Below are positions 35,261-54,371 of a DNA stretch of 64,000 bases, one piece after another. Within the stretch, counting starts at the first letter, position 1. Each line of letters opens with the position of its first letter. The notes under the pieces were generated by a model, which had not been told where the DNA came from, ran no database searches, and saw only the letters and a list, made by a program, of their open reading frames with translations. This DNA is from Lacunisphaera sp. GTDB lineage: Bacteria > Verrucomicrobiota > Verrucomicrobiia > Opitutales > Opitutaceae. Made by a program: the position numbers and the translations under genes. The DNA is taken from assembly GCA_044224295.1 (NCBI GenBank), contig JBGAKQ010000003.1, forward strand, positions 81,498-145,497. Reading direction: 5' to 3'.

Positions 35261-35335
35261 GGTGGGGTGAACCGGGCGATTTATCCGGGCCAGCGCCCCG
35301 GGGGTCGAGTAATTAATAAGGAGCAACTGCCGGCC

Positions 35336-36814
35336 TTACCGGATGAACAACCCGGTAAGGTAGATATACCAGCCGCCCAGGAGCACGCAAACGCCGGCAT
35401 GGAGCATGGCGGAGTTCCGCCACCGCCACAGCAGCCAGCAGAGCGGGGCCGTCACGGGAAAAGCAATGAGCGCCAGCGTGACCGGTTTGACCAGCCAGTG
35501 TTCCGCCAGGCGGTGGGTAAAGGCCCAGTTGTTGGCGTCCTTGGCCACCACGGCGTAGGCCAGGGTGAGGGTGGCTACGCCGATCACGGGGCCGATCCAC
35601 CGGACCGCCGGGGAGGCGGAGGCGGCCGGTTGCGCGGAGGGCCGCGCCGGTTGCGCGGCGTGGGCGCGGCGGCGCCACCACATCCAGGCGCCACTCAGCG
35701 CGAGGAAACTCGGCGTCATGCCGAGGATGAACCAAATGACTTTGGTGAAGAGGCCGCCGAAATAACCGAAATGAATCGGATCGAAAGCCCAGTAGATCCG
35801 GTTCCAACCGGTGTCCTCTCGGCCGTCGACCTTGCTGAGCACGTCACCGGTCACCGGGTCGAGCCGCAGGGAATTGCGCCGGCGCACATGGCTTTGGGCC
35901 ACCAGCATGCTGGGCACGTCGCCGGTCATGACCGCGGGTGTGCCGGCCTTCGCGGGAATGGTCATCGTGCGCACGGTGAAATCGGGAAACGCCGCGCGGG
36001 CGCGCGCCAGCAATTCGTTGGCGCCGAGCACCGGACCCGTCGCGAGGCGCTTGGCCGCTTGCCCGGGTTTCTCGGTCATCTCGCCGCCTTCGGCGGAATC
36101 GGCCGGCGCCGTGGCGGCCGAAGGGGAACTGAACCACTTCTTCTCGATGCGGACATACGCGCCCTCCAGGCCGAAGACCGCGCCGGTGAATCCAATCATC
36201 AGGTTGAACACGAGCGACCACACCCCGATGAACTTGTGCAACTCGGCCCAGGGCGGCCGGGTGCCCCAGCTGCCTTTCAGCCGCAATTGGAAGAGTTTCT
36301 TGATCCAGCCGCGGTAGATCCAGAGGCCCGTCGCGCAGGACAGCATCAGCGTCACGCCGAACACCCCGACGAACATGCGGCCCCACGCGCCCATCAGCAG
36401 GCGAACGTGCGACTGGCGGATGAATTGGTAGATCGTGCTGGTATAACCTCCGCCGGGAGCGCGCTCACCAGTGACCGCCCCGGTGGCGGGATCGACGTAC
36501 GCCGTCACGCCGCGACTTTTCCCATTGGGCTGCCGGACCGACAGGGCCGCTTCATGCGCGAAGTGCGGGCGCACTGAAAATTCGAGGCGGTTGATCCGGG
36601 CACCCGGGTACTGCGCTTGGAGGCTGGCGATGATGGCCTCCGCGTCGACGCGTTTGCCGTCGGCCGCGGGTTCGACGCGCATGCCGGGCGTCACCATCCA
36701 TTCAATTTCCGGAGCGAAAACGGCCACCGCGCCGGTGAACCCAATAAGGAACAGGAAGAGGCCGGTGAGCAATCCCAGCCAAACGTGCCAGCGAAAGACG
36801 GTTTTCAGGGTCAT
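35336..36814 (-). CDS. PepSY-associated TM-helix protein (PiuB/FoxB-like putative ferric-siderophore reductase)
   Basis: The start is trimmed to the ATG at 36814, giving MTLKTVFRWHVWLGLLTGLFLFLIGFTGAVAVF. There are repeated TM helices with conserved His (LHKFIGVWSL, DPIHFGYFGG). The longer ORF to 37345 overlaps the receptor gene. Confidence 0.8.
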   Translation of the reverse strand: MTLKTVFRWHVWLGLLTGLFLFLIGFTGAVAVFAPEIEWMVTPGMRVEPAADGKRVDAEAIIASLQAQYPGARINRLEFSVRPHFAHEAALSVRQPNGKSRGVTAYVDPATGAVTGERAPGGGYTSTIYQFIRQSHVRLLMGAWGRMFVGVFGVTLMLSCATGLWIYRGWIKKLFQLRLKGSWGTRPPWAELHKFIGVWSLVFNLMIGFTGAVFGLEGAYVRIEKKWFSSPSAATAPADSAEGGEMTEKPGQAAKRLATGPVLGANELLARARAAFPDFTVRTMTIPAKAGTPAVMTGDVPSMLVAQSHVRRRNSLRLDPVTGDVLSKVDGREDTGWNRIYWAFDPIHFGYFGGLFTKVIWFILGMTPSFLALSGAWMWWRRRAHAAQPARPSAQPAASASPAVRWIGPVIGVATLTLAYAVVAKDANNWAFTHRLAEHWLVKPVTLALIAFPVTAPLCWLLWRWRNSAMLHAGVCVLLGGWYIYLTGLFIR

Positions 36815-38982: not shown

Positions 38983-39054
38983 GGGAAGTAGCGAGAGGTT
39001 GTTTGCCCGGTGAACGGGACGTGACTAGCAGCCGAAATGCCAGCGGCAAGCCTT

Positions 39055-39065
39055 ATTGTATACGA
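39055..39065. promoter_or_regulatory. Candidate GntR operator ATTGTATACGA (site 1; ~75 nt upstream of the siderophore-type receptor start)
   Basis: The 11-mer is identical to 51277-51287. It contains the palindrome GTATAC and is an AT-rich island in a GC-rich intergenic region. Confidence 0.4.
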
Positions 39066-39264
39066 AATCGAAGAAGCGCCCGAAAAACCCGGGCGAGCCA
39101 GGCGGCGTTAGGCCTGCTGTATTTGAGGACGTCGGGAAAGGACATGGCCGATAAAGTTCGTGTTTTTCACTCTCACGAGCGTGTAAGCGGAATGCGCGCA
39201 CGCGGTGCCTGCCGGCAGGGCGCGGGCTCGAAAAACGGAGGTCGGTATTCTTTTGGGGTTGCCT

Positions 39265-39275
39265 ATCGTATACAC
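39265..39275. promoter_or_regulatory. Candidate GntR operator (site 2; reverse strand reads GTGTATACGAT; ~100 nt upstream of the OM-channel operon)
   Basis: Shares the 9-mer TGTATACGA with sites 1 and 4. Confidence 0.35.
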
Positions 39276-39372
39276 TCTGCCTTTCAAAACGAGAGTCCCG
39301 TATGAAACCTGCTTCGATTCTTTCAGGCGCCGGAGTTGCCGGCTGGGCCACGACGCTGGGAGGGGTTTCGCG

Positions 39373-40104
39373 ATGAAGCGCGCTCGGCACAAGCTCCTGC
39401 TAGCGTCGCTCCTCCTCTGGGCCGCCCCGTGGTTGCTCGCCCGTCCGCTGGACACGGACGACACAGGCACCGTCGCGAAGGGGCAGTGGGAAATGGAGGG
39501 CGGGCTGGATTTCACCCGCGCAGCGGGAGCCAATTCGTGGGCGTATACGCCGGTGTTGGCGTACGGGCTTACCGATCGCCTTCAAGTCGAGCTTGGCTGC
39601 GACTACTTGGTGGAGCACGGTGACGTGGACGAGGCCGCTGCGCACGGACTGGATCCATTGCTTCAACTTAAGAGTCGCTGCTGGAGCACGGCCGACGGTC
39701 GCTTCAGTCTCGCTCTCGCTGGAAACCTCGGCTGGCCGGCTCGCCTGCGCGGGCCCCGCGAGGGCTGGGAGCGGCACGGCGAGGTGCGGTTGCTGGCCAC
39801 GCAAGAATTCGGCGAGGCCGCTCTCGATTTTAATGCAGGCTATGAATTCACCGGTGCGTGGGGCGGTGGGGATGACGCTGGGCTCGTGAGTGCCGGCTTT
39901 CGTCGCCCCGTGACCTCAACGCTCGGCTGGGTCGGTGAAGTGTTCGCGACGTTTCCGCGGCAGGCTTCCATGCAGACCCTGGTGGCGACCGGCCTGACGG
40001 TCCAAGGGCGAGGCGGCTGGACCTTTGATGCGTTGGTGGGCTGCGGCGTCGGGACTGAAAGTCCGGACGTTCGATTTGTACTCGGATTTGTTCGTGCCCT
40101 CTGA
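39373..40104 (+). CDS. Putative outer-membrane beta-barrel channel (MetA/phenol-degradation-pathway transporter-like)
   Basis: The ATG at 39373 gives the signal peptide MKRARHKLLLASLLLWAAPWLLA. LDTDDTGTVAKGQWEMEGGLDF and alternating beta-strand-like segments follow. The family assignment is from memory only. Confidence 0.45.
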   Translation: MKRARHKLLLASLLLWAAPWLLARPLDTDDTGTVAKGQWEMEGGLDFTRAAGANSWAYTPVLAYGLTDRLQVELGCDYLVEHGDVDEAAAHGLDPLLQLKSRCWSTADGRFSLALAGNLGWPARLRGPREGWERHGEVRLLATQEFGEAALDFNAGYEFTGAWGGGDDAGLVSAGFRRPVTSTLGWVGEVFATFPRQASMQTLVATGLTVQGRGGWTFDALVGCGVGTESPDVRFVLGFVRAL

Positions 40105-40109
40105 TCGCG

Positions 40110-41402
40110 ATGACCCTTCCTGCCGCACTCTCCGAGCAACTCGTCCGCTGGCGGCGGGATTTTCATGCGCACCCCGAACTCGGCTTTTGCGAATATCGGA
40201 CCGCCGCGAAGGTTTGTGGCGTGCTGACCGGGCTGTCGGGCTGCACCGTGCGGGTGGGGCGTGAGGTCATGGATCCGGCGGCCTGCGTGGGAATGCCACC
40301 GGCGTCAGAAATCGCGGCGGCGCGCGCCGAAGCGCTTTCGTTGGGCGCCGACCGCGCGTGGGTCGAGCGGATGGGGGACGGGCTCACGGGCGTGGTGGCG
40401 GAGTGGGATTTCTCCCGGCCCGGACCGACGGTGGTTTTCCGCGCGGATCTGGACGCCTTGCCCGTCACGGAATCCACTGCCGCGACGCACCGGCCCGCCT
40501 GCGAAGGATTCGCGTCAAAACATATCGGTCGGATGCACGCGTGTGGGCACGATGGAAACACCGCCGTGGCGCTTGGCCTCGCCGCGATGGTCGCCGAAAA
40601 GAGCGCAGGGTGGGGCGGCCGCCTGCGCATTGTCTTTCAACCGGCGGAAGAAGGTTGCCGCGGCGGCCCGTCGATGATCGCGGCCGGGGTTGTCCGCGAT
40701 GCGGATTATTTCGTCGCCAGCCACCTAGGTACTTCGGCCAAGGAGGCCGGCCTGGTGAGCTGCAGTGTGCGCGGCTGGCTGGCGACGACCAAGCTCGACG
40801 TGGTCCTGCACGGGAAGGCGGCTCATGCGGGCCTCGCTCCGCAGGAAGGGCGCAACGCATTGCTGGCGGCGGCAACCATCGTGGTCCAGTTGCACGCGCT
40901 ACCGCGGCATGCGGACGGCGCATCCCGCGTCAACGTCGGTGTGCTCAAGGCCGGCACCGGGCGCAACATCATCGCCGATCGCGCGGAACTCAAACTCGAG
41001 GTGCGCGGCGCGACCACCGCGATCAATGACTTCATGACCGCGGAGGCCAGACGCATCATCGCGGCGGCGGCGGAAATGCACGGCGTACGAGCGGAGGTTT
41101 CGGTGGCCGGCGTCGCGCAGGGCGGCGCCTGCGACGCAAAGCTGCAGCCGATCGTCCGCGCGGCCGCCCTCGATGTGCCGGCGACCCGCCGGGTGGTGGA
41201 TTGGCTCGAGACCAGCGGGAGCGAAGACGCCACCTTCTTCATCAACGCCGTGCAGGCTCGCGGGGGATCGGCGACGTACGTGCTGGTTGGCACGCCCCTG
41301 GCCGCGGGTCACCACGAACCGGATTTCGATTTTGATGAAACCGCCTTGGCGCATGCCGTGGCCGTGCACACGGGCATCGCCGACCGGCTGCTGCGTCCCT
41401 GA
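40110..41402 (+). CDS. M20D-family amidohydrolase (aminoacylase / hippurate-hydrolase-like)
   Basis: WRRDFHAHPELGFCEYRTA, the MHACGHDGNTAV metal-binding motif, FQPAEEG. 430 aa. Confidence 0.85.
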   Translation: MTLPAALSEQLVRWRRDFHAHPELGFCEYRTAAKVCGVLTGLSGCTVRVGREVMDPAACVGMPPASEIAAARAEALSLGADRAWVERMGDGLTGVVAEWDFSRPGPTVVFRADLDALPVTESTAATHRPACEGFASKHIGRMHACGHDGNTAVALGLAAMVAEKSAGWGGRLRIVFQPAEEGCRGGPSMIAAGVVRDADYFVASHLGTSAKEAGLVSCSVRGWLATTKLDVVLHGKAAHAGLAPQEGRNALLAAATIVVQLHALPRHADGASRVNVGVLKAGTGRNIIADRAELKLEVRGATTAINDFMTAEARRIIAAAAEMHGVRAEVSVAGVAQGGACDAKLQPIVRAAALDVPATRRVVDWLETSGSEDATFFINAVQARGGSATYVLVGTPLAAGHHEPDFDFDETALAHAVAVHTGIADRLLRP

Positions 41403-41413
41403 AATTTTTCCCC

Positions 41414-42382
41414 ATGTCCACCTCGTCTGCTCCCGCCCAACTTCTTACCTTGGCCAGCATTCGCGCGGCGCGCCTCCGCATCGCCCCGCACATCCGGCGC
41501 ACGCCGGTCCTCACCAATGAGGCCCTCGATGCTGAAATCGGGCGACGGTTGTACTTCAAATGCGAGAATTTCCAGACCGTGGGCGTCTTCAAAGCGCGCG
41601 GGGCGGCCAATGCGGTGCTGAATCTCAGTGATGCCGACGCCGCGCGAGGCGTGGCCACGCATTCTTCGGGCAACCACGCGGCTGCGCTCGCACGGGCGGC
41701 CCGGCTGCGCGGTATTCCCGCGTACATCGTGATGCCGTCCAATTCACCGCGCTCGAAGGTCAAGAACGTGGAGCGCTACGGCGGCCAGATCACCTTTTGC
41801 GAACCGACGCCGGAGGCGCGCACCCAGACCTGCGCACGGATCGTCGCGGAAACGGGCGCCGCATTTGTCCATCCCTATGAGAATTTCGACGTGATGGCCG
41901 GGCAGGGGACGGCAGCGCTCGAACTGCTCGAGGATGTGCCGGAACTCGATCGCTTGCTTTGCCCGGTTGGCGGCGGCGGCCTGCTCGCCGGCACGGCCGT
42001 GGCGGCGAAAGGCGTGCGGCCGTCCATCAAGGTCATCGCCGTCGAGCCCGCGCAGGCGGACGACGCCTATCATTCCTTCCAAGCCGGCCGATTGGTGCGC
42101 CGGCCGACCGACACCATCGCCGACGGGCTTCGGACCGTCGTGGGCGAACCGAATCTCGAGATCATGCGCGAGGTGGTGGACGAAATCGTCACCGTCAGCG
42201 AGGCGAGCATCGTCACCGCCATGCGGCGCCTCTGGGAGGAACTCAAAATCGTCGTCGAGCCTTCCGGCGCGGTTCCTTTCGCGGCGGTCCTTGAGGGCAA
42301 AATTCCCGCCGATAGCCGGCCCACCGGAATCATCCTCAGCGGCGGCAACGTCGATCTGGACCGTCTGCCCTGGCAAAAATAA
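41414..42382 (+). CDS. PLP-dependent threonine/serine dehydratase-family enzyme (serine racemase / 3-hydroxyaspartate ammonia-lyase-like)
   Basis: FKCENFQTVGVFKARGAANAV (PLP lysine context), HSSGNHAAALARAA, CPVGGGGLLAG. 322 aa with no ACT regulatory domain. Confidence 0.85.
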   Translation: MSTSSAPAQLLTLASIRAARLRIAPHIRRTPVLTNEALDAEIGRRLYFKCENFQTVGVFKARGAANAVLNLSDADAARGVATHSSGNHAAALARAARLRGIPAYIVMPSNSPRSKVKNVERYGGQITFCEPTPEARTQTCARIVAETGAAFVHPYENFDVMAGQGTAALELLEDVPELDRLLCPVGGGGLLAGTAVAAKGVRPSIKVIAVEPAQADDAYHSFQAGRLVRRPTDTIADGLRTVVGEPNLEIMREVVDEIVTVSEASIVTAMRRLWEELKIVVEPSGAVPFAAVLEGKIPADSRPTGIILSGGNVDLDRLPWQK

Positions 42383-42430
42383 CCGGCCACATTCGCACAG
42401 CTTCAATCACTCTTTCGTACCTGATCCCCT

Positions 42431-43960
42431 ATGACCTCTGAAACTCGATTCCTCCGCCAGACTTGGCTTAACCGGTCCCTCTGGGCCGTCGTTGGTTCCT
42501 GCCTCCTCCTCGCCTCTCCGTCGCTGCCGGCGGCGCAGATCAAAAGCGAAACCCGGACAATCGCGCTGCCCGATGGTACGTCGGTTGAATATGAATTGGG
42601 TACGCTCCAAGTCCCGGAGAACCGGCAGAACCCCACTAGCCGGACCATCTCGGTGGGCTTCGCGCGTTTTCGCGGGATGACGGCCACCGGCGCTCCGCCC
42701 ACGATTCATCTTCCCGGCGGTCCAGGGAATTCCTACGTGAGCGCCATGCACCTCGACGCCAAGGATGCCGCCGCCCGCAAACTCAACGAGCGTCAGGCTG
42801 CGGACCTCCAGCGCTATCGTCAGGTGGGCGATGTGATCTACTTTGATCAACGCGGCTGCAGCGAACTCGGCGAAAGACTTGTGTTCGCGTACGACATCCC
42901 CGCTAAACCACTGGATCAGCCCGGCAGCATGGCCCGGGAGACCGCGGAATTCGTCGAGGCTTCCAAGGCCGCACTTGCCGACGCGGCCAAGCGTGGCATC
43001 GACGTGCGGGGCTACACCATCCGCGACTGTGCGGAAGACGTGAATGATCTGCGTCGCGAGCTCGGATACGAACGCATCACGCTCATCGGGCAAAGTTTCG
43101 GCTCGCAGTGGAGCTTCGCCATCATGCGCCTGCATCCGGGCATCGTCGCCCGCGCCGTGCTGTCCGGTGTCGAGCCACTCGATTGCGGTTACGACATGCC
43201 GGCCAACGTCTACACCGCGATGCGCAAGATGTGGCAGGCCGTCGAGCGTGACCCCGCGTTCCAACCCTATTTGCCACGCGGCGGCATCGCCGGGGCGGTG
43301 GTGGAAATTGTGCGTCGCTTGGAAAAGGGCCCGGTGCAGGTCAAGGTCACGGAGAAGTCTGGTGAAACGAAGACGGTCGTGCTCGGTCGCGAAGATTTCC
43401 GTCCGGAAACTCCCGCCGAAATCCTCGCGATCTATCATGGCCACTACGAGGGATGGGCGAAAGAGGTGCTGGCGCGTCGCCGGGCCCACAAGGGTCGCAT
43501 CGATCCGTTGATCGGGCCGCTGATCGACACCGGCCTGGCGGTAACCCCGGCGCGTCGCAACCTCCTGCGCACCGACCCGGCCATCGCCTTGCTTGGCGAA
43601 TGGAATTTCGACGACTACATGGCCACCGAGGAAATCTGGCCCACGGAAGACGTGGGTGATGAATTCCGGCTCGAAGTACGCAACCACCTGCCGGTGCTTT
43701 TCGTGCACGGCGACTGGGACCTCAACACGCCGCGCGAAAATCTGCTGCACGTGCTGCCGTATTTCACCAACAGCCGCACCGTGTTGGTGCATCAAGGTCA
43801 GCACAGCGCGTTCGCGCGCGTGCGCGAGACGCTGCCCGAGGCCACCGCCGCCATTATGGATTTCGTTCGCAATGGCTCGACCGACAACCTGCCGGTTGAG
43901 GTGACCGTGCCGGCGCCGAAATTCGTCGCCCCGGATTTCCCGGCGCCGGCCAAGCCTTAA
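42431..43960 (+). CDS. Secreted alpha/beta-hydrolase, S33-like (prolyl/tripeptidyl aminopeptidase-like)
   Basis: Signal peptide. HLPGGPGNSY oxyanion region, the nucleophile elbow LIGQSFGSQW, and C-terminal HGDWDLNTP ... QGQH. Confidence 0.7.
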   Translation: MTSETRFLRQTWLNRSLWAVVGSCLLLASPSLPAAQIKSETRTIALPDGTSVEYELGTLQVPENRQNPTSRTISVGFARFRGMTATGAPPTIHLPGGPGNSYVSAMHLDAKDAAARKLNERQAADLQRYRQVGDVIYFDQRGCSELGERLVFAYDIPAKPLDQPGSMARETAEFVEASKAALADAAKRGIDVRGYTIRDCAEDVNDLRRELGYERITLIGQSFGSQWSFAIMRLHPGIVARAVLSGVEPLDCGYDMPANVYTAMRKMWQAVERDPAFQPYLPRGGIAGAVVEIVRRLEKGPVQVKVTEKSGETKTVVLGREDFRPETPAEILAIYHGHYEGWAKEVLARRRAHKGRIDPLIGPLIDTGLAVTPARRNLLRTDPAIALLGEWNFDDYMATEEIWPTEDVGDEFRLEVRNHLPVLFVHGDWDLNTPRENLLHVLPYFTNSRTVLVHQGQHSAFARVRETLPEATAAIMDFVRNGSTDNLPVEVTVPAPKFVAPDFPAPAKP

Positions 43961-44009
43961 GGGCGCACGGCTGGCCGTGACCCCTCAGCAACCCGAACCG
44001 AATCACTCC

Positions 44010-46013
44010 ATGAAGAAACTGGTGTTCCTCTTTTTGTGTGCGGCGGGCTTGCTGCCGCGGTCCGCTTCGGCGGCCGAATTGACCCCCGAACTCATCGTCG
44101 ATCTCAAGATGGTGCAGGACGTGCGTTTGTCCGCGGACGGCAAATGGGTGGCCTATCTTGTCGAGGGCGAGGGCGACGGCGGTGGCAAGAGCAAGAAACT
44201 GTGGGTGGCCAGCACCGAAGGTGCCCTGTCCCAGCGACGGCTGCTCCCCGATCGCAACCAAGTATCCGTGGCGCGGTGGGCGCCGGACGGCCGGCTCGCG
44301 GTCGTGGCCCAAAGCGAGACCGCGCCGCGACGCCGACAGCTGCTGTTGATAGAAGCGTCCGGCGGGGAACCGCGCGTGCTCGTGGATAAATTTGCGGGCG
44401 CTTCCCTCGAATGGTCACCCGATGGCCGCCAGCTGGGCTTTCTCCAATCGGATGCGGCGGCGCCGGCCCGCAAACGCAGCGCGGGTGAACCGCTGGTTTA
44501 CACCCGTGAGCAGGAACCCGAGACTGCGGTGGATCGCTTGTACACCCTCGACGTGGCCACGGGCATGACGCAGGCGCGCACGCCTTCGACCCATAGCCTT
44601 ACCGATTTCGCCTGGTCGCCGCGGGGAGACGCCGTGGTGGCATTGGCTCGTCCGGTGAAGGACGGGTCACGGCGGGCTGTAACGATTTTCGCGCTGTCAG
44701 GAAATGACCGGCCGCGCGAATTATGGACGCCCTCGGACCAAACGAATGCGCTGTCGTGGTCTCCGGACGGCAAGACGATTGCGTGGACCGGGCGCGAGTT
44801 CACGCCGGGCAGCGGACAGTTGGTGGTGATGAATGCGGCCGGCGATCCCGCGGTGCGCACGGTGCAGGCGAATTTTCCCGGTTCGATTCACCACATGATG
44901 TTCCGGGCCGACGGTCGGCTGGCCTTTGGCGCCCAGGTGAATCTCCGCATCGGAATTTATTCGGTCGCGGCGGACGGTTCGGATTTGCGTGAGGACCATC
45001 CTGCCGCCTCCTTCGCTCCCGGCTCGCTCGGGGCCGGATCGCTCGGCGGATTCACGATTTCGTTTAGTGCCGACGGGTCGCGGGTGGCGAGTGCCGTTTC
45101 CGGACCGCGGGAATATGCCAACGTCATCGCCGGCCCGTGGAGGGGCACGCTTACGCGCCGCACCGCGCTTAACCCTGAGGTCGCGGACGTACCGCTGGCT
45201 ACGGTGGACGAGATTTCTTGGAACTCATTCGATGGGCTTGAGGTGTACGGTTTCCTCGTGAAGCCCGCGGGCTTCAATTCCGCAAAGAAATATCCAATGG
45301 TGGTCCTGCCACATGGCGGGCCGCGTCGTTCCTGGTGGGCGACATGCGTGCTGGAAGATTGGAGCGGCTGGCTCGCGAACCAGGGCTATGTCGTGCTGAT
45401 GCCGAATCCGCGCGGCAGCGAAGGGCGTGGAGCTGACTTCGTGCGCGCCAACCGCATGGACTTGGGCGGCGGCGACTGGCGAGATATCGTGGCGGGTCTG
45501 GACCACGTCCTCACGTTAGGCTTCGTCGATCCCGACCGGCTCGCGATCACGGGCTGGAGTTATGGCGGCTATTTGACGGCGTGGGGTATTACGCAACCGG
45601 AGGGTAGGAGATTCAAGGCAGCGGTGATCGGCGCCGGCATTACGAACCGCCTGTCCAAGGGCGGCGCGGCGGGCAGTTGGTCGGATGTTCATTACGGCGA
45701 CCCGCAGGCGATTTGGCGGAATACGCAGGAATTCTTTTATCGTTCACCCCTCGCGCATGTCAGCCGGGTCACGGCACCGACGCTGATCGTGCACGGCGAT
45801 AACGACTCCAAGGTCGCCCACAACCAGGCGTTGGATTTTTTCAACGGGCTCAAGGCGCTAGGTGTGCCCACGGAGGCTCGGATTTATCCGGGCGAAGGCC
45901 ACAACTTCAGCCAGCGAGACCACCGGATCGATTTGTTGAACAGCATCGCCCGGTGGCTGCGCACCTATGTGCCGGCTGATGCGCCGCGCATTGCGCAAAC
46001 CGCCCAGCAGTGA
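44010..46013 (+). CDS. S9-family serine peptidase (prolyl oligopeptidase / dipeptidyl-peptidase-like), secreted, paralog 1
   Basis: The ATG at 44010 gives MKKLVFLFLCAAGLLP. An N-terminal beta-propeller-like region (SADGKWVAY, SPDGRQLGF, SPDGKTIAW) is followed by GWSYGGYL (Ser nucleophile), HGDNDSKV (Asp) and GEGHNF (His). Confidence 0.85.
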   Translation: MKKLVFLFLCAAGLLPRSASAAELTPELIVDLKMVQDVRLSADGKWVAYLVEGEGDGGGKSKKLWVASTEGALSQRRLLPDRNQVSVARWAPDGRLAVVAQSETAPRRRQLLLIEASGGEPRVLVDKFAGASLEWSPDGRQLGFLQSDAAAPARKRSAGEPLVYTREQEPETAVDRLYTLDVATGMTQARTPSTHSLTDFAWSPRGDAVVALARPVKDGSRRAVTIFALSGNDRPRELWTPSDQTNALSWSPDGKTIAWTGREFTPGSGQLVVMNAAGDPAVRTVQANFPGSIHHMMFRADGRLAFGAQVNLRIGIYSVAADGSDLREDHPAASFAPGSLGAGSLGGFTISFSADGSRVASAVSGPREYANVIAGPWRGTLTRRTALNPEVADVPLATVDEISWNSFDGLEVYGFLVKPAGFNSAKKYPMVVLPHGGPRRSWWATCVLEDWSGWLANQGYVVLMPNPRGSEGRGADFVRANRMDLGGGDWRDIVAGLDHVLTLGFVDPDRLAITGWSYGGYLTAWGITQPEGRRFKAAVIGAGITNRLSKGGAAGSWSDVHYGDPQAIWRNTQEFFYRSPLAHVSRVTAPTLIVHGDNDSKVAHNQALDFFNGLKALGVPTEARIYPGEGHNFSQRDHRIDLLNSIARWLRTYVPADAPRIAQTAQQ

Positions 46014-46081
46014 TTTCGTTTTCGTAGGGCGTCCATGGGGCGCCCAAGGGCAGCGTCCGCTCCCGGAACCCCTGAAATACC

Positions 46082-48079
46082 ATGAAAACCATTGCGCCAC
46101 TCCTCGCGTTGGCAGCGTGCTGCCTATCCGTTTGCGCCAGCTTCGGAGCGGATCTGACCGCGGAATTCCTGGCTGACCTCAAGACCGTGGGTGGGGTGCG
46201 GTTGTCACCCGACGGCAAATGGGTCACCTACGTGGTGGAAGGCGAATCCCGCGAAGCCGGCAAGACAAAGGAATTGTGGCTGGCCAGCGTGGACGGGAAA
46301 CCCAGTCAGCGGCGCCTGCTGCCTGGACGGAAAAACGTGTCGGAGGCCCGGTGGTCCGCCAGCGGCCGCCTGGCGGTGGTGACGGCTGCGGAGATCGAGC
46401 CTCACCGCCAATTGTTGCTGGTGGATTTGGGAACCGAGGCCGTGCAGGTGCTCGTCGACCGGTTCGAAGGCTCTTCGATCGAATGGTCGTCAGACGGCCG
46501 GCAAATTGGATTCATCCAGACCGAAAGCATCGTGCCGGCCCGCAAGCGTAGCGCCAGCGAACCGCTGGTGCTCGACGCCACGCGCGCCGCCAGCGGCAGC
46601 GTGAGTCGGTTTTTCACACTGGATGTCGAGACGAAAGTCCAGCAAGTCCGGACCCCGCCCAGTCACTCCGTCACCAAGTTTGGCTGGAGCCCGCAAGGTG
46701 ATGCCATCGTGGCGCTGGCGCGCAGCGTGAACGATGGGCGGGGGACCATGATCACAGTGTTTCCTTTCGCGGAGGGTGCCGCGCCGCGCGAACTCTGGCA
46801 TCCGCATGATCAAACGCTGACGCTTGCCTGGTCGCCTGACGGCAAGGTGATTGCTTGGTGCGGGCGGGAACTGACTCCGCAAAGCGGACAATTGGTGTTG
46901 CTACAGGCCAACGGTGATCCGCGCCCGCGCACCGTGCAGGCAGATTTTCCGGGCAGCCTGCACCACATCGCTTTTCGGGCGGACGGCCGACTGGCCTTCG
47001 GCGCACTGGAGAACCTACGGGCCGGCATTTATTCCGTTGCGGCGGACGGTTCCGACCTGCGCGCGGATCATCCCGCTTCCTCTTTCGCCCCGGGATCATT
47101 GGGGGTCGGTTCCTTCGCGTATTTCGCGCTCTCTTTCAGCGCTGACGGCTCGCGGGTCGCGACCACGGTGTCCGGGCCGGGAGAGCCGGCCAACGTGATC
47201 GCCGGACCGTGGCGGGGAAACTTGACGCGCCGCACCGACCTCAATCCGGCCGTCTCGGAACTGTCGTTGGGCGCGGTGGAGGACGTCTCCTGGCGGTCCT
47301 TCGACCAATTGGAGATCCATGGTTTTGTGATCAAACCGCCGGGGTTCGACCCCGCGAAAAAATACCCGCTGGTGGTTCTCACGCACGGTGGGCCGCGTCG
47401 CTCCTGGTGGGCAAACGGATTCTTGGATGATTGGTGGGGCCAGTGGATCGCGCACCAAGGTTACATGGTGTTCCTCCCTAATCCGCGCGGCAGTGAAGGT
47501 CGCGGGGCGGATTTTGTGCGTGCGAATTACCGCGACCTCGGTGGCGGCGACTGGCGGGACGTGGTGACGGGCCTGGACCATGTGCTCACGCTGGGGAATG
47601 CCGATCCCGAGCGCCTAGGCTTGGCCGGCTGGAGCTATGGTGGCTTTCTGGCGGCTTGGGGGCTCACGCAGCCCGAGGGACGGCGATTCAAGGTTGGCAT
47701 TGTCGGCGCGGGCATCACCAACCGCCTGGCGGGTGGAGCCGCCGCGAGTGGCTGGTCGGAGGATCACTATGGTGACCCGCAGCTGATCTGGCGTCATCCT
47801 ATGGAGCACTTCTACCGTTCGCCGATCGCCCATGTGGGGTGCGTCTCGGCCCCAACGTTGATCCTCCACGGCGACAACGACACGACGGTGCCCCACGGCC
47901 AATCGATGGATTTCTACAATGGGCTGCGCGCTATGGGCGTGCCCACGGAGGCGCGGATCTATCCCGGTGCCGGGCACGCCTTCACCCGCCGCGATCAGAA
48001 AATTGATCTGTTCAACAGCATTGCGCGTTGGCTGCGGACGTACCTCCCGGCTGGCGCACCGCGCGCCGGACAAAAGTGA
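46082..48079 (+). CDS. S9-family serine peptidase, secreted, tandem paralog 2
   Basis: Colinear with paralog 1 and identical at most aligned positions by eye. GWSYGGFL, HGDNDTTV, GAGHAF. Confidence 0.85.
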   Translation: MKTIAPLLALAACCLSVCASFGADLTAEFLADLKTVGGVRLSPDGKWVTYVVEGESREAGKTKELWLASVDGKPSQRRLLPGRKNVSEARWSASGRLAVVTAAEIEPHRQLLLVDLGTEAVQVLVDRFEGSSIEWSSDGRQIGFIQTESIVPARKRSASEPLVLDATRAASGSVSRFFTLDVETKVQQVRTPPSHSVTKFGWSPQGDAIVALARSVNDGRGTMITVFPFAEGAAPRELWHPHDQTLTLAWSPDGKVIAWCGRELTPQSGQLVLLQANGDPRPRTVQADFPGSLHHIAFRADGRLAFGALENLRAGIYSVAADGSDLRADHPASSFAPGSLGVGSFAYFALSFSADGSRVATTVSGPGEPANVIAGPWRGNLTRRTDLNPAVSELSLGAVEDVSWRSFDQLEIHGFVIKPPGFDPAKKYPLVVLTHGGPRRSWWANGFLDDWWGQWIAHQGYMVFLPNPRGSEGRGADFVRANYRDLGGGDWRDVVTGLDHVLTLGNADPERLGLAGWSYGGFLAAWGLTQPEGRRFKVGIVGAGITNRLAGGAAASGWSEDHYGDPQLIWRHPMEHFYRSPIAHVGCVSAPTLILHGDNDTTVPHGQSMDFYNGLRAMGVPTEARIYPGAGHAFTRRDQKIDLFNSIARWLRTYLPAGAPRAGQK

Positions 48080-48123
48080 TTGGCAGGGGCGTCCCTTGCG
48101 GACGCCCGCGTTGGCCGCCCATT

Positions 48124-48350
48124 GTAGGAGCCTGCTTGCAGGCGATGAAACGTGCGCCATCGGTAGACCGTTTTTTTGAATCCAAAGCCGGTTCTCGTCT
48201 CAAAATCCGGATCATTTCCGCCACCGTCATCCTGAGCCGTGCGAAGGAGCGAAGGGGATTCGCGAGTTCGCTTGGGTTTTTCGCACGGCTCAGAATGACG
48301 ACAGCGACAAGCGCGGGTGTGGGCCGAGTCGCCTGCAAGCAGGCTCCTAC
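48124..48350. repeat. Composite nested element: family C arms (48124-48145 and 48329-48350) enclosing a family A palindrome (48226-48299)
   Basis: GTAGGAGCCTGCTTGCAGGCGA ... [GTCATCCTGAGCCGTGCGAA ... TTCGCACGGCTCAGAATGAC] ... TCGCCTGCAAGCAGGCTCCTAC. It lies between convergent genes. Confidence 0.8.
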
Positions 48351-48364
48351 AAACGGCGGGCGCT

Positions 48365-49381
48365 TCAGCCCCAGAAGGGGAATTTATCTCCGCGTCCCGA
48401 TTGGAGCGCCTTCTGATAAACCAAGGCGGCGGCGGCGACGTCTTGCAGGGCGGTGCCGGTGGCGTCGTAGATGATGATTTCCTGGTCGTCCTTGCGGCGC
48501 GGCGCTTGGCCGATGATCACCTGCCCGAGCTCGCCGCGCACATCGGACGCCTTCATGAGGCCGGCGTCGATTGCGTGGTGAAGGTCGCCGACATGTTCAC
48601 ACTGCGCCGTGAGGTCGGTGACGACCGAGTTCGCGGCGAGAAATTCCGGTTCCATCTCCTGCTTGTCCGGGCTGTCCGCCCCGACGGCAGCCACGAAGGT
48701 GCCCGGCGAAATCATGTCGCGTCCGATGATCCAGCGGCGGGCGGGAGTGCACGTCACCACAATGTCGCTGGAGCGAGTCGCGGCGCGAAGATCGGGTGCG
48801 GCTCGGACCGGCAGCCCGAGCTTGCGCGCCTGGATGCCCGCGAACTCGGCGGCCTTGTCGGCATTCAAATCCCAGACGTGGACGCTCTTGATCGGGCGGA
48901 CCTTCGTAATGGCCTCGAGCTGGATCGCTCCTTGAATTCCGCCGCCGATGATGGTCAACGTGCTCGCATTCGTTTTGGCGAGATAGCGCGCGGCCACGGC
49001 GGTGGTGGCGCCGGTGCGCTTGATGGTGATTTCAGCAGACTCCATCACCGCCAGCGGCTGGCCGGTGCTGGCATCGTAGAGCAGGATCAGGCCTTGGATA
49101 TTGGGCAGGCCGTTGCGCGCGCGATTCTGGAAGAACCCGCCGTTCACCTTGCAGGCGTAGACGGGCTTGGGTGTGCGCAAGCCGCCGGCCTTGATGTGGA
49201 ATTCGCCGTCGATCCCATCGCCATGGAGAAGGCCTGGCCCGAGCGTTTCCCCGCGCGCATGGGCGCCGAAGCATTCCTCGGCCGCGGCGATGCATTCCTC
49301 CACCGTGAGCAGCTCGGCGATCGTCCTGCGATCGAGGAGGAGGGCGGGGGGAGTGGTTCTGAGTTGGATCGGGTCAGGCAT
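48365..49381 (-). CDS. Ornithine cyclodeaminase / mu-crystallin family protein
   Basis: The ATG at 49381 gives MPDPIQLRTTPPALLLDRRTIAELLTVEECI. Also HIKAGG, LILLYDASTGQPLAVM, TIIGGGIQG (Rossmann), IIYDATGTALQDV. Confidence 0.85.
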   Translation of the reverse strand: MPDPIQLRTTPPALLLDRRTIAELLTVEECIAAAEECFGAHARGETLGPGLLHGDGIDGEFHIKAGGLRTPKPVYACKVNGGFFQNRARNGLPNIQGLILLYDASTGQPLAVMESAEITIKRTGATTAVAARYLAKTNASTLTIIGGGIQGAIQLEAITKVRPIKSVHVWDLNADKAAEFAGIQARKLGLPVRAAPDLRAATRSSDIVVTCTPARRWIIGRDMISPGTFVAAVGADSPDKQEMEPEFLAANSVVTDLTAQCEHVGDLHHAIDAGLMKASDVRGELGQVIIGQAPRRKDDQEIIIYDATGTALQDVAAAALVYQKALQSGRGDKFPFWG

Positions 49382-49400
49382 GGTTGAAGATGGAAATGTT

Positions 49401-51158
49401 TCAGCGACGCACTTGCACCGGTTCGAGGACGCGGCCCGGCAGTGCCAGCGTCGGGCGACCGCTCTCGACGACGGCCACGCCGTTGACGAAGACCGCATCG
49501 ATCCCAGTCGGATATTCGTTGGGTTCGAGGAAAGTGGTGTTGTCCTTCACATTTGGCAGATCAATGAGGACGAGATCCGCCTTGTAGCCGACCGCTAGCG
49601 TGCCCCGGTCGGGCAAATTGAGAATGTGCGCCGGCAGACTCGTGCATTTGCGGACCGTCTCCTCGATGGTTTCGATTTTCTGGTCGCGCACAAAATGAGC
49701 GAGGCGCCGTGGGTAGCTGCCGAAACAACGACGATTGGTGCCAATGTATTTCAGCGGACCCACCGCCTCTTCCGGGAGCACGATCCATCCATCGGTCGAG
49801 CCCATGCACCATGGCTGCGTGAGCAGCATTTCCACGTCCTTCTCCTCCATGCTGAAGGCGCGCAGCTTCACGCCACCCGGTCGGTGCGCGAAACCTTCGA
49901 GTTGCAACGCGACGACCAGCTCCGTCAGGCCAAGCTTCCGCATTCGCATCAGTTCTCCCAGTGATTTGCCGACGTAGGACGCGTCCGGGTACTCGAGCAC
50001 GCGGATGTTCTCGGCGCCGCCTTTCAAGTCGACCTGGTGTTCCACGTCGCGACGCAGGTCGGGAAGTCGTTCCGCGTTGGCGAGCGTGCGCCGCAGTCCC
50101 GCTTGGAAGTCGGCGGCCTTCGGATCGTCTTCATCGTCCTCATTGCCGGTCTTGGCATTGCCTCCCTTCATGGCCCACGGCGGGAGAGCGACAAAGTTTC
50201 CGTCGCTGCCGGCGCTGTCATAGGGATAGAGGTCGGCAAAAACTCGCGCACCCTTCGCCCGCGCCTCATTGATCCGCGCCACCGTCCGTGCGGCCTCGCC
50301 GCGAAAGCCCGGGCCCCAACCCTTGAGGTGGGTGGCGACAACGAGTGCGCCGGTTTCCCGCGCCACCTCGAAGATTTCGGTCAGTGAAGTTTCCAGTGTC
50401 GGTGGCGGCCGCGCGCCATGCACGCTTGGTTTGTACCACATCGGCGCCGACCCCTGGCTGCGGAGGTGCGCGATGAACACGCCATTGTGGGCGGGCAACA
50501 CGCGGGCGAGTTCGCGGAGTTCATTCGTATCGGAATAAAGACCACTGTTGTACTCCAGGCCCAGGGAGAGCCCAAAGGAACCTTCCTCGGTCAAGCCGCG
50601 CACAAGGATCGCCTGCATGCGCGCGATCTCCTCGGCATTCGCGGGTCGCGCCGTGTCCTTCCCCATCACCTGGCGGCGCAGCGTGGCGTGACCATTGGCG
50701 AGTGCGACGTTGACGCCGATGCCTAGTTGTTGGAGCTCGCGCCGCTGGTCCACGAGCGACGCCGGCTGCCCGCCATCCGGATTCACAAAGGCGGTGGTCA
50801 CCCCTTGCATCACGTAATTCTGGGCGGCGCGGTAGCGCGCGTCCGGGGAGCGCAGGGTCTTTTTCTTGTTACCGGCATCATCGAGATGCGCATGCACGTC
50901 GATAAAACCCGGCGTCAGATAACGGCCCTTTGCGTCGATGACTTGACGCGCGTGCGCGGCGTCGAGGAAACCGATCGCGGCAATGCGATCGCCAATGACG
51001 GCGACGTCACCTCGAAACGGAATCGCGCCGGTCCCGTCGACCACGGTCGCGTTTCGGATAAGCAGGTCGTATTCGGACTGGGTTGCGGCGGTCGCGATGG
51101 TGACCGCGTAAGCAGCCGCGAGACAGGCGAGAAGGCACAGGGTGGGACGAGGCGTCAT
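49401..51158 (-). CDS. N-acyl-D-amino-acid deacylase (D-aminoacylase) family amidohydrolase, secreted
   Basis: Signal peptide. YDLLIRNATVVDGTG...GDVAVIGDRIAAIG...TPGFIDVHAHLD metal motif, and a C-terminal GTLAVGYKADLVLID. 585 aa. Confidence 0.85.
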   Translation of the reverse strand: MTPRPTLCLLACLAAAYAVTIATAATQSEYDLLIRNATVVDGTGAIPFRGDVAVIGDRIAAIGFLDAAHARQVIDAKGRYLTPGFIDVHAHLDDAGNKKKTLRSPDARYRAAQNYVMQGVTTAFVNPDGGQPASLVDQRRELQQLGIGVNVALANGHATLRRQVMGKDTARPANAEEIARMQAILVRGLTEEGSFGLSLGLEYNSGLYSDTNELRELARVLPAHNGVFIAHLRSQGSAPMWYKPSVHGARPPPTLETSLTEIFEVARETGALVVATHLKGWGPGFRGEAARTVARINEARAKGARVFADLYPYDSAGSDGNFVALPPWAMKGGNAKTGNEDDEDDPKAADFQAGLRRTLANAERLPDLRRDVEHQVDLKGGAENIRVLEYPDASYVGKSLGELMRMRKLGLTELVVALQLEGFAHRPGGVKLRAFSMEEKDVEMLLTQPWCMGSTDGWIVLPEEAVGPLKYIGTNRRCFGSYPRRLAHFVRDQKIETIEETVRKCTSLPAHILNLPDRGTLAVGYKADLVLIDLPNVKDNTTFLEPNEYPTGIDAVFVNGVAVVESGRPTLALPGRVLEPVQVRR

Positions 51159-51180
51159 GGGAAAGGAACAGGTTCCAATA

Positions 51181-51191
51181 TAGTATACAAT
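51181..51191. promoter_or_regulatory. Candidate GntR operator (site 3; reverse strand reads ATTGTATACTA; ~25 nt upstream of the D-aminoacylase start)
   Basis: Shares ATTGTATAC with sites 1 and 4. Confidence 0.35.
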
Positions 51192-51276
51192 ACGAGGCCC
51201 CGCGGGGCGGAGATTACACTGCGATACGAGGGAAGGCGAAGGCGTCGCCTTTTCAAGGGAAAATCATTGACTGGTG

Positions 51277-51287
51277 ATTGTATACGA
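51277..51287. promoter_or_regulatory. Candidate GntR operator ATTGTATACGA (site 4; ~65 nt upstream of the POT transporter start)
   Basis: An 11/11 match to site 1. Confidence 0.4.
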
Positions 51288-51351
51288 GAATCCTTTCCAG
51301 CGCCAGCGTGCTTGGCGCCGCGCCGCCGTACTCTCAGTCACCAGCAACCCG

Positions 51352-52737
51352 ATGATTGGATTCTCCGCCCACCCCCGTTGCCTTCCGGTGTTGTTTTTCA
51401 CCGAGATGTGGGAGCGGTTCAGCTTCTATGGAATGAATGCCCTGCTGGTGTTGTATCTCGTCCAGCCAGTGGTCGATGGGGGTTTGGGCTATGCGACGGA
51501 TCGCGCAGCACTGTTGTACGGCAACTACACGCTGTTGATTTACGTTCTGTCCATCGTCGGCGGTTTCGTTGCCGACCGCTGGGTTGGTCAAAAGATGGCG
51601 GTGGTGGTTGGCGGCGTGGTGATCGCGGGAGGGCATTTCTCCATCGCGCTGGGTTCGGTCGCGAGCTTGTACGTCGGCTTGGGCGGCATCGCGATCGGGA
51701 CGGGTTTTCTCAAACCTAACGTCAGTTCACTCGTCGGCCGCCTGTATTCGATGGATGATCCCCGACGCGACGCCGGCTTTTCGCTTTACTACATGGGCGT
51801 CAATCTGGGCGCGTTCATCGCGCCGATTGTCTGCGGCTACCTTGCGCAGAGCGTCGGGTTCCGTCAGGTGCTCGCCGACGCGGGCCTCGACCCGCGCGGC
51901 AGCTGGCATTGGGGTTTTGGCGCGGCGGGCGTGGGGATGCTGATCGGATTGGGACTCTTCTTGCGCGCGTGGAAGGCTATCCCGGCTGATCCGCCCCGGG
52001 GACTCACCGCGGTTTCGGATGAAAGTCGTCCGGCGTCCGCCGTCGTGGCCGGTGATGAACTCCGGCAACGCTTGCTCGCGATCGGTTTCTTTTGCCTGTG
52101 CGCAATCCTGTTCTTTGCCGTGCTGAAGCAATCAGGCTCATCGATGAATCTTTTCGCCGACCGCCTCACGCGCTGCGAAGTCTTCGGGTTCACCTTCCCC
52201 TCGTCATGGTTTCAGTCAGTCGGCCCGGGATTCATCATCCTGCTAGCGCCTGTCTTCTCGCGGCTCTGGCTTCGGCTCGGAGATCGCCAGCCGTCCAGTC
52301 CCGCAAAGGCCATCCTAGGGCTAGCCGGTGCCGCGGGGTGCATGGCGCTGATGGCGTGCGCGGGTTTCCTTGCCGTGGAAGGACGCGTGAGCCCTTTCTG
52401 GCTCGTGGCCGCGTACGCCGCCCAAACGATGGGCGAACTTTGCCTGAGTCCGGTCGGCTTGAGCAATGTTTCCCGGCTCTCGCCGCCTGCGATCGGTGGA
52501 TTGATGATGGGTGCGTGGTTTGTGGCGATTGGTCTGGGCGGCAAACTGGCGGGTTCGCTTGCGGCTGGGTTTGGCCGGAGTGACCCTTCCGGGTTGGCCT
52601 GGGTATTTGGCCGGCAGGCGATCGCCATCGTGGTGCTGGCACTGCTGCTGGCATGCCTCGTCCCATGGGTTCGGCGGGTGATCGCGCGGAGCGCGGGCAC
52701 GCCAGCTATCGCGACCGGCCCGCGGAGCGCCGGTTGA
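51352..52737 (+). CDS. Proton-dependent oligopeptide transporter (POT/PTR2 family, DtpT-like)
   Basis: The ATG at 51352. FFTEMWERFSFYGMNALLVLYL (ExxERFxYYG-type signature), IVGGFVADRWVGQ, FKPNVSSLVG. Confidence 0.9.
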   Translation: MIGFSAHPRCLPVLFFTEMWERFSFYGMNALLVLYLVQPVVDGGLGYATDRAALLYGNYTLLIYVLSIVGGFVADRWVGQKMAVVVGGVVIAGGHFSIALGSVASLYVGLGGIAIGTGFLKPNVSSLVGRLYSMDDPRRDAGFSLYYMGVNLGAFIAPIVCGYLAQSVGFRQVLADAGLDPRGSWHWGFGAAGVGMLIGLGLFLRAWKAIPADPPRGLTAVSDESRPASAVVAGDELRQRLLAIGFFCLCAILFFAVLKQSGSSMNLFADRLTRCEVFGFTFPSSWFQSVGPGFIILLAPVFSRLWLRLGDRQPSSPAKAILGLAGAAGCMALMACAGFLAVEGRVSPFWLVAAYAAQTMGELCLSPVGLSNVSRLSPPAIGGLMMGAWFVAIGLGGKLAGSLAAGFGRSDPSGLAWVFGRQAIAIVVLALLLACLVPWVRRVIARSAGTPAIATGPRSAG

Positions 52738-53150
52738 TTGGAGGCGTTTTCGGAAGCCACCCGCCGCCTTGTGCCGTGACGCTGTGTCCGGTGGCCGGTC
52801 ATACGCTGGCCCGCGATGGCGCGGCCGCCCGAAGCGCTTCGCGGGCGTGCCGTCGCTTTCTTCGTGAATTCGTAATCCGGCTGCCGGCGGCCTCGCGTCC
52901 GGAATCAACCCGTCCGGAGGCCGGGTTCCACCTTGAAGCGCCCCGCTTAGTGCGCGGTGCGCGGGATTGCCGCGGCGACACTGGCCTTAAGCGGGAAGAG
53001 CCGCCGGGTGCCGGCGATCAAGCCCGGCACCGTGTGAGGCCCGATCGCTGCAGTGCCCTGATTTTGCTAGCCCTCGCTTTGGAAAAAAGGGAGAGTCGCG
53101 AAGCTCTCCTTGTTCATTCCGGCCAGTTCAACCCAACCCCAGACCCTGAC

Positions 53151-54371
53151 ATGAATCCCTCCCGTCTCTTCACGGCGAGTTGCGTCGCCCTGATCACCAC
53201 TGCCATGAGTTTCGCCCTGCGGGGCGGGGCCACGGGCGACTGGATCACCCAGTTCAACCTGACCAACGAGCAGGTGGGTTGGGTCAACGGCACGGCTTTC
53301 TGGGGCTTCACCCTGGCGATGGTGTTCGGCGGACCGCTCGTCGACACGCTTGGCTTCCGCCGGATCCTGGGCGTGGCGTTCGTCGGCCACGCCGCGGGCA
53401 TCCTGCTCACGATTTTTGCGTGGGACTTTTGGAGTCTCTTCACCGGCACGCTGCTCTTCGGCATCGCCAACGGCTCCGTTGAGGCCGCCTGTAATCCGCT
53501 GGTCGCGACCATTTATCCGAAAAACCAGACCACGAAGCTCAACCATTTCCACGTGTGGTTCCCCGGCGGCATCGTGATCGGCGGTTTGCTCGCGTTCCTC
53601 TTTGGCAAACTGGGGTTGGGCTGGAAGGCGCAGTTCGCCACCATGCTGCTGCCGCTGGTCGGCTACGGTTTCCTTTTTCTCGGCCAGGAAATGCCCCGCA
53701 CCGAGCGCGTGCAGCGCGGCGAAAGCACGGGTTCGATGTTCGCGGCCTGCCTCGCCCCTGGTTTCCTGCTCATGGTCGTCTGCATGTTGATGACCGCCGC
53801 AACCGAGCTCGGCTCGGGCCAGTGGATTCCCAACATCCTCTCGCACGCGGGTGTTTCCGGCATCCTCGTCCTCGTGTGGATCAACGGCATCATGGCGGTC
53901 GGCCGCATGTTCGCCGGTCCCTTCGTGCACAAACTCTCGCCCAACGGCATGCTCGTCATGAGCGCGATCCTTTCGACGCTCGGCCTCTACGCCATGAGCC
54001 ACGCCAGCGGCAACATGCTCTTCGCCGCCGCGACCGTCTTTGCGTTCGGCGTGTGCTTCTTCTGGCCCACGATGGTCGGTTATGTCGCCGAGAATTTCCC
54101 CATGACCGGCGCCCTCGGCATGGCGATCGTCGGCGGGGCCGGCATGCTCAGCGTGAGTTTCGTCCTTCCGATCATCGGCAAGTGGTATGACGCCGGCATC
54201 GCCGCGCGCACCCCGGCCGGCGCGGCCCCCACGGGCGACGCGCTGGCGGCGATCCAGGCCGCGGCGGGGCTCGAGGCCCTGGGCAAGGTCGCGATCCTGC
54301 CGGCCGTGCTGACAGTGATCTTTATCGGCATCCTGCTCGCGCGGCGCGCGAGCGCCAAAGCGGCGGCTTGA
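53151..54371 (+). CDS. MFS transporter (substrate unknown)
   Basis: The ATG at 53151 gives MNPSRLFTASCVALITTAMSF. 12 predicted hydrophobic segments. The extension to 52653 is Arg/Pro-rich non-membrane sequence. Confidence 0.8.
   Translation: MNPSRLFTASCVALITTAMSFALRGGATGDWITQFNLTNEQVGWVNGTAFWGFTLAMVFGGPLVDTLGFRRILGVAFVGHAAGILLTIFAWDFWSLFTGTLLFGIANGSVEAACNPLVATIYPKNQTTKLNHFHVWFPGGIVIGGLLAFLFGKLGLGWKAQFATMLLPLVGYGFLFLGQEMPRTERVQRGESTGSMFAACLAPGFLLMVVCMLMTAATELGSGQWIPNILSHAGVSGILVLVWINGIMAVGRMFAGPFVHKLSPNGMLVMSAILSTLGLYAMSHASGNMLFAAATVFAFGVCFFWPTMVGYVAENFPMTGALGMAIVGGAGMLSVSFVLPIIGKWYDAGIAARTPAGAAPTGDALAAIQAAAGLEALGKVAILPAVLTVIFIGILLARRASAKAAA

Follow-up and report, generated by a model that had tools for sequence, protein, structure and literature searches.

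Genes and intergenic spacers of the locus

We analyzed a stretch of 64,000 nucleotides (hereafter, the window) with a GC content of 65%, the nearest relatives of which are Opitutaceae-like Verrucomicrobiota from activated-sludge metagenomes. The genes of interest form four transcription units that diverge from two spacers (Table 1). Unit 1 runs from a TonB-dependent receptor through a PepSY-TM protein to a GntR/FCD regulator, the gene for which is the last in the unit. Across a 390-bp spacer (spacer 1) lies unit 2, in which the OM-protein gene is followed on the plus strand by genes for an M20 amidohydrolase, a PLP dehydratase, a secreted alpha/beta hydrolase, and two S9 peptidases. Unit 3, which comprises a D-aminoacylase gene and an OCD-family gene, is separated from unit 4, the POT gene, by a second spacer of 193 bp (spacer 2, positions 51159 to 51351), and an MFS gene lies beyond the POT gene. 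Homologues of the D-aminoacylase are annotated as N-acyl-D-amino-acid deacylase. The POT start codon is at 51352 rather than 51353; an N-terminal extension of the POT protein, MIGFS.HPRCLPV, is kept in the related contig L084 and supports this start.

TABLE 1 Coordinates of the genes and sequence elements of the locus within the window
Feature	Position	Strand	Remarks
GntR/FCD (FadR-subfamily) regulator	34568-35260	minus	230 aa from M23; candidate binder of sites A to D
PepSY-TM protein	35336-36814	minus	
TonB-dependent receptor	36883-38982	minus	Above the cut-off of a siderophore-receptor model
Site A, TTATTGTATACGAA	39053-39066		Center 78.5 nt upstream of the ATG (38982) of the receptor gene
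Site B, CTATCGTATACACT	39263-39276		Center 102.5 nt upstream of the ATG (39373) of the OM protein, first gene of the peptidase operon
OM beta-barrel-like protein	39373-40104	plus	
OCD/mu-crystallin gene	48365-49381	minus	Downstream of the D-aminoacylase gene; both form unit 3
Secreted N-acyl-D-amino-acid deacylase family gene (D-aminoacylase)	49401-51158	minus	Pfam Amidohydro_3
Site C, operator-like palindrome	51180-51193		Minus strand reads GTATTGTATACTAT; center 27.5 nt upstream of the ATG (51158) of the D-aminoacylase gene
Middle ATACGAG (copy 2)	51224-51230	plus	41.5 nt from the center of site C
Conserved 18-nt block, CAAGGGAAAATCATTGAC	51254-51271		5 nt from site D; 100% identical in L084
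Site D, operator-like palindrome, TGATTGTATACGAG	51275-51288		Center 69.5 nt upstream of the POT ATG (51352)
POT-family di/tripeptide:H+ symporter, unit 4	51352-52737	plus	Pfam PTR2; TIGR00924 322.8 bits, above cut-off

The regulator exceeds the Pfam cut-offs for both of its domains (GntR, PF00392, 62.7 bits against a cut-off of 27; FCD, PF07729, 88.4 bits against 24.3), and its PDB relatives are GntR regulators of the FadR type. Its best NCBIfam matches (PhnR, NanR, CsiR, and LldR) all fall far below cut-off, and its orthologues all share the recognition helix, VSRTP(I/L)REA.NRLA, without change. Judged on these profiles, the regulator represents a predicted new group of orthologues, of a kind that is well known. 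The ORF as listed spans 34568 to 35326 (252 aa, TTG start). Given that the database form has 230 aa and starts at M23 (35260), and that the orthologues have 230 to 235 aa, the listed ORF is probably too long.

Two of the enzymes share a profile-level likeness. The PLP dehydratase (41414 to 42382) matches BhcB (403 bits, cut-off 550) and EutB best, below cut-off, and the best matches of the OCD-family protein are a cyclodeaminase model, EutC, and BhcD. Together they look like a dehydratase/imine-reductase pair that could convert a beta-hydroxy amino acid to an amino acid. The pair adjoins the siderophore-model receptor and the PepSY protein.

Four palindromic sites in the two spacers

Spacer 2 contains two A/T-rich palindromes (sites C and D), and two more (sites A and B) are found in the spacer between the receptor and OM-protein genes; the pattern common to all four is TAT(T/C)GTATAC(R)A. 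An earlier note on this DNA had placed TAGTATACAAT about 25 nt from the D-aminoacylase start. This word is present at 51181 to 51191 (reverse strand ATTGTATACTA), 23 nt from the ATG. The note had likewise reported an 11/11 match of ATTGTATACGA, at 51277 to 51287, to 39055 to 39065, which is correct; the word ends 65 nt before the POT ATG. The copy at 39266 to 39276, within site B (reverse strand AGTGTATACGA), has one mismatch. Across the four units, the sites lie 27 to 103 nt upstream of the first gene, and site A serves the unit that contains the GntR gene. Downstream of site B we also observed a small ORF of 24 codons (MKPASILSGAGVAGWATTLGGVSR, 39303 to 39377), with a TGA stop that shares bases with the OM-protein start codon (ATGA). 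This ORF may have a leader or coupling role, or it may be spurious.

We considered whether spacer 2 is a duplicate of spacer 1 and rejected this: the alignment score of 25 compares with a shuffle mean of 18.7 and a shuffle maximum of 30. Because the similarity is limited to the operator word, spacer 2 was not copied from spacer 1.

Statistical weight of the motif

The hexamer GTATAC occurs five times in the 64-kb window, at 39058, 39268, 39543 (coding), 51183, and 51280, compared to 1.3 expected, and 4 of 100 shuffles reach five. For a more specific measure, we used a position weight matrix (PWM) of 14 columns built from nine sites, all from loci of other organisms. Because these training sites were selected by their exact GTATAC core, only the flanks constitute independent evidence. 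When the PWM was run on the 64 kb, the eight best matches were the four intergenic sites on both strands (18.4 to 24.7 bits), and the ninth match scored 13.7 bits, which is noise level. Site A is the window's best at 24.7 bits, followed by site C (19.4/21.6), site D (18.5/16.8), and site B (18.4). A matrix derived from other organisms thus recovers all four sites. The earlier proposals that spacer 2 carries the same motif as the receptor/OM-protein spacer and that there is a separate copy for every one of the four transcription units are supported.

In 30 Markov shuffles the PWM maxima were mostly 11 to 14 bits, and a single match at or above 15 bits was detected in 368 kb of high-GC control loci with D-aminoacylase homologues of other lineages. 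An alignment of 13 sites reads n-T-A-T-(T/C)-G-T-A-T-A-C-(A/G)-A-n, with GT, AT, and AC invariant in 13/13 and the TAT flank present in 12/13. One could nevertheless suppose that A/T-rich words have clustered by chance in the A/T-richer intergenic DNA of a 65% GC genome, given that the GTATAC counts are small and that two of the 30 shuffles contain a single PWM match of 17 to 20 bits. Set against this are four independent sites, all of them in two divergent promoter regions of one locus and each conserved in orthologous spacers. Because of these comparative data, which are described below, we regard chance clustering as effectively refuted and its probability as vanishingly small.

Conservation of the sites in related loci

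Among the matches listed, the only orthologous copy of spacer 2 is that of L084, a 2.4-kb contig with the same divergent POT/D-aminoacylase arrangement and a D-aminoacylase that is 84% identical. The 11-mer of site D (TCGTATACAAT) is identical there, and site C, which reads CGTATTGTATACGG with CGTATTGTATAC identical, is again ~23 nt from the start codon. The centers of sites C and D are 97 nt apart in both the window and L084, and most of the remaining spacer has diverged. The 18-nt block next to site D occurs once in the window, and its surroundings are diverged in L084. Two further elements of spacer 2 are not conserved in L084: a mid-spacer hairpin at 51233 to 51251 (AAGGCGA-loop-TCGCCTT, then TT) and a 10-nt palindrome, CCCCGCGGGG, within 51199 to 51208.

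Spacer 1 gives a similar picture in a larger set of relatives. In L081, whose GntR is 83% identical, both spacer-1 sites are conserved islands amid diverged sequence, and in the spacers of L084 and L081 alike the sites stand out among few conserved islands. Both spacer-1 sites are conserved in L081, L085, L088, L093, L095, and L099. Exactly two sites were found in spacer 1 of L085-L087, L088, L093, L095, and L099/L100, with essentially no further GTATAC in 10 to 21 kb; L095 has an additional, third site, located 27 nt upstream of an S9 peptidase gene that is transcribed separately. The counterpart of site B is ATATCGTATACACT in L088 and L093. Across spacers, the inter-site distances are 97, 164, and 203 to 210 nt. 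Considering these data together with the PWM results, sites A to D are non-random and conserved.

Two D-aminoacylase homologues from other contexts, in L004 (Oleiharenicola lentus) and L002 (a Steroidobacteraceae MAG), are ~55% identical and lack the motif; L004 also lacks an adjacent GntR gene. DNA runs from activated sludge contained the identical strain, with zero differences from the window, and therefore provide no population-level footprint. The RNA runs considered, which were very small metatranscriptomes, contained none of the sequence.

Association of the motif with the GntR/FCD regulator

The motif and an orthologue of the regulator co-occur in L001, L081, L084, L085-L088, L093, L095, L096, L098, and L099. 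In L001, an Opitutus sp. MAG, the genes for a GntR orthologue (53% identical) and a D-aminoacylase diverge, and between them lies a perfect ATTGTATACAAT, which holds the one GTATAC in 4.6 kb. In L096 (GntR 61% identical) and L098 (55%), sites are located directly upstream of the GntR gene and of neighboring genes for PLP enzymes or peptidases. The locus L097 (GntR 55% identical) has only a weak variant of 12.5 bits, which is noise level.

Two properties expected of operators are therefore found: the sites lie upstream of operons that are co-localized with a GntR/FCD gene, and site and regulator are conserved together across loci. An upstream spacer in L091 is the exception to the latter. In this locus the unit of an alpha/beta hydrolase and a D-aminoacylase is convergent with the neighboring GntR orthologue (71% identical), and no site was detectable in the spacer upstream of the unit (L091 positions 703 to 958). 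In this organism the unit may have dropped out of the regulon or may be served by a site that has diverged.

The palindromes might instead be bound by another transcription factor, the gene for which lies elsewhere. Many regulators, of the GntR family and otherwise, use A/T-rich GT..AC palindromes, as the part of PMC4494728 on which we draw describes, and our motif scan covers the 64-kb window, such that the regulon could be larger or the motif shared with another factor. This reading has to contend with the finding that the motif accompanies orthologues of just this GntR in four or more gene arrangements, including positions directly upstream of the GntR gene, and with the high-GC loci containing D-aminoacylase homologues of other lineages, which are essentially without the motif. 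We consider it very unlikely.

The ATACGAG word

The earlier note had also singled out ATACGAG as a half-site that occurs three times in spacer 2. The three copies are indeed there, starting at 51190, 51224, and 51282; they fall within 99 bp, and only one further copy exists in 64 kb. Their status as a distinct, thrice-repeated half-site did not hold up, because copies 1 and 3 belong to sites C and D and the word is thus largely a re-count of those sites. Copy 3 (51282 to 51288) makes up the right half of site D. Copy 1 (51190 to 51196) overlaps the conserved TAT/GTAT flank of site C, its center lies 7.5 nt from that of the palindrome, and its GTAT is kept in L084. For copy 2, the aligned stretch in L084 is CTCTATGAC, with only the neighboring CTTCCCTC kept. 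A base-composition estimate gives a chance of ~0.02 for one further ATACGAG in 193 bp, before allowing for the post-hoc choice of the word.

ATACGAG could still be a real third element, in the form of auxiliary half-sites or of NanR-like direct repeats through which additional subunits of the regulator are recruited across the spacer. The concentration of copies in spacer 2 and an 8-mer common to copies 1 and 2 (ATACGAGG) fit this idea. So does the position of copy 1: weaker extra half-sites 7 to 12 nt from the site center are documented for GntR-family operators in the portion of PMC4494728 used here, and the extension of site C by CGTAT within copy 1 resembles such a flanking half-site, both in its distance from the palindrome center and in the conservation of its GTAT part in L084. 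The resemblance ends with the other two copies, given that copy 2 is far beyond the range described there and is not retained in L084 and that copy 3 lies inside a palindrome. Moreover, the spacings of 34 and 58 nt are irregular, and the 7-mer is absent from all orthologous spacers examined. We therefore consider a third element unlikely, and copy 2 is probably not a functional half-site.

Promoters and RNA elements

A scan of both spacers for consensus sigma-70 promoters found none, and a manual search around the sites identified no convincing pair of -35 and -10 elements. The conserved 18-nt block contains a -35-like TTGAC that faces the POT gene, with no -10 element at 16 to 18 nt. We also considered cis-regulatory RNAs (riboswitches or leaders) and rejected them: Rfam covariance models gave no match at E<=1 in 51100 to 51420 and only two sub-threshold chance matches in 38900 to 39450.

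Words resembling a -10 box (TACAAT, TATACT, and TACACT) do occur inside the sites, which raises the question of whether the A/T-rich words serve chiefly as core promoter elements and are conserved because RNA polymerase recognizes them. Each site holds a -10-like hexamer that faces a neighboring gene, the half that is better conserved (TATTGTA) is TACAATA when read on the opposite strand, and neither spacer yielded another sigma-70-like promoter. The dyad symmetry, the invariant GT and AC, and a conserved pattern of 12 to 14 bp would be unexpected for a -10 box, a matching -35 element at 16 to 18 nt is absent, and the same word is located at very different distances from the start codons. The pattern also matches the FadR-type consensus, as far as the available part of PMC4494728 defines it. 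We regard core promoter elements as a highly improbable main explanation. The two readings are compatible to the extent that an operator can overlap a -10 box, and operators and -10 boxes may overlap here, as the placement of these hexamers suggests.

A predicted regulon and its rearrangement

Taken together, the data make it quite likely that sites A to D are operators of the GntR/FCD regulator encoded at 34568 to 35260. The regulator would use its winged helix-turn-helix to bind, as a dimer, each TAT(T/C)GTATAC(R)A palindrome, with one site for each unit: the receptor-PepSY-GntR unit, the OM-protein/peptidase operon, the D-aminoacylase-OCD unit, and the POT gene. The regulator would most likely act as a repressor. 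Repression is suggested mainly by position, because site C is centered 27 nt from the start codon. A small-molecule intermediate of peptide and amino-acid breakdown would bind the FCD domain, upon which the regulator would leave the DNA. Because its gene sits in unit 1, the regulator would be autoregulated through site A. That the regulator physically binds the sites, whether it represses, what its effector is, and how the sites are placed relative to promoters are all inferred.

The earlier suggestion of a single regulon is well supported by comparison: the sites are kept in relatives, the motif lies beside GntR orthologues, and the POT, D-aminoacylase, and OCD genes are co-operonic in L099. 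The OM-protein operon of L085-L088 and L093 includes the OCD and D-aminoacylase genes, and that of L099/L100 includes a POT orthologue (78% identical) as well, along with the D-aminoacylase and OCD genes. In all of L085-L088, L093, and L099, this operon lies behind a single two-site spacer. Because these genes share one two-site spacer in relatives, the window's separate units carry genes that are co-regulated elsewhere. A comparison of L099 (1 to 13461) with the window (36883 to 54371) places POT, D-aminoacylase, and OCD genes in one long operon with a syntenic downstream flank. Because of this long operon, we interpret the gene order of the window as derived by rearrangement, with a divergent promoter region that was newly equipped. 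The window and L084 would thus represent the rearranged state, in which a new divergent spacer, predicted to carry its own two operators, precedes the departed genes.

A broader proposal is that the operator set defines a previously undescribed regulon of Opitutaceae-like bacteria that import and dismantle peptides containing D- or beta-hydroxy-amino acids, with a new FadR-type GntR sensing a pathway intermediate. Its members may include the siderophore-type TonB receptor, PepSY, secreted S9/S33/M20 peptidases, a secreted D-aminoacylase, the BhcB/BhcD- or EutB/EutC-like pair, and POT, and the peptides may be, for example, peptide siderophores or cell-wall or lipopeptide fragments. At this level of detail, we judge the proposal quite unlikely to be correct as a whole. 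Literature searches that combined D-aminoacylase, GntR, and TonB-dependent returned no paper, and a search for the exact word TTGTATACAA returned cloning-vector papers only.

To our knowledge, very few regulons have been described in Verrucomicrobiota, and the locus offers a predicted cis-element and regulator assignment in this phylum that can be tested. That the predicted operators show the expected behavior of a FadR-type GntR regulator is no surprise. Their interest lies in tying four transcription units into one predicted control unit, which delimits a conserved set of genes (TonB receptor, PepSY, secreted peptidases, D-aminoacylase, dehydratase/reductase pair, and POT) by which unusual peptides would be taken up and broken down. 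The effector of the regulator can be screened for and is a handle for finding the substrate, and the locus would be an example of a regulon that is kept through operon rearrangement.

Comparison with known GntR-family operators

Known operators of this family include ATACTTGTATACAAGTAT, the operator of Bacillus subtilis GntR, and the TTGTA(G/C)TACA(A/T) repeats of E. coli DgoR. NanR is a further FadR-subfamily regulator with repeated sites, and spacer 2 resembles its operators in having a short A/T-rich word three times in one promoter region. Its operators consist of GGTATA repeats, cited as TGGTATAW direct repeats in the part of PMC4494728 used here. In contrast, the primary sites described here are palindromes, and the ATACGAG repeats are irregularly spaced and without conservation. 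The likeness of the regulator to NanR protein is weak (71 bits, compared to a cut-off of 260).

The closest counterparts are the palindromic operators of the FadR subfamily at large. According to the available part of PMC4494728 (Suvorova et al. 2015), the consensus is an A/T-rich palindrome with TKGT/ACMA boxes, or, as a formula, NyGTM-N0-1-KACNy with 2 to 3 nt between GT and AC; the GntR, HpxS, HypR, MdcY, PrpR, and UxuR groups have a GT-AC spacing of 2 nt. Sites A to D read (T/C/A/G)GT-AT-AC(A/G/T), in agreement with this consensus, although the outer T/A is imperfect in one half of most sites. The TTGT-AT-ACAA found here is the same box type as the 2-nt operators in that part of the study, with the difference that the boxes given there are TKGT and one half-site here is often TCGT. 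The same source describes divergons with two separate sites, each for the adjacent operon (PMC4494728), and the variable inter-site distances that we found (97, 164, and 203 to 210 nt) agree with such two-site divergons.

As far as that source describes them, FadR-subfamily systems are alike in further respects: the sites are located at promoters of catabolic and transport operons beside the regulator gene, these can form a two-site divergon, and the regulator combines a GntR winged helix-turn-helix with an FCD domain. The locus described here differs in its orthologous group, which matches no named NCBIfam equivalog, and in its taxon, given that Verrucomicrobia is not among the study taxa named in the part of PMC4494728 used here and our locus is from Opitutaceae-like Verrucomicrobiota. 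It also differs in its targets, which here are a siderophore-type TonB receptor, PepSY, secreted peptidases, D-aminoacylase, and POT.
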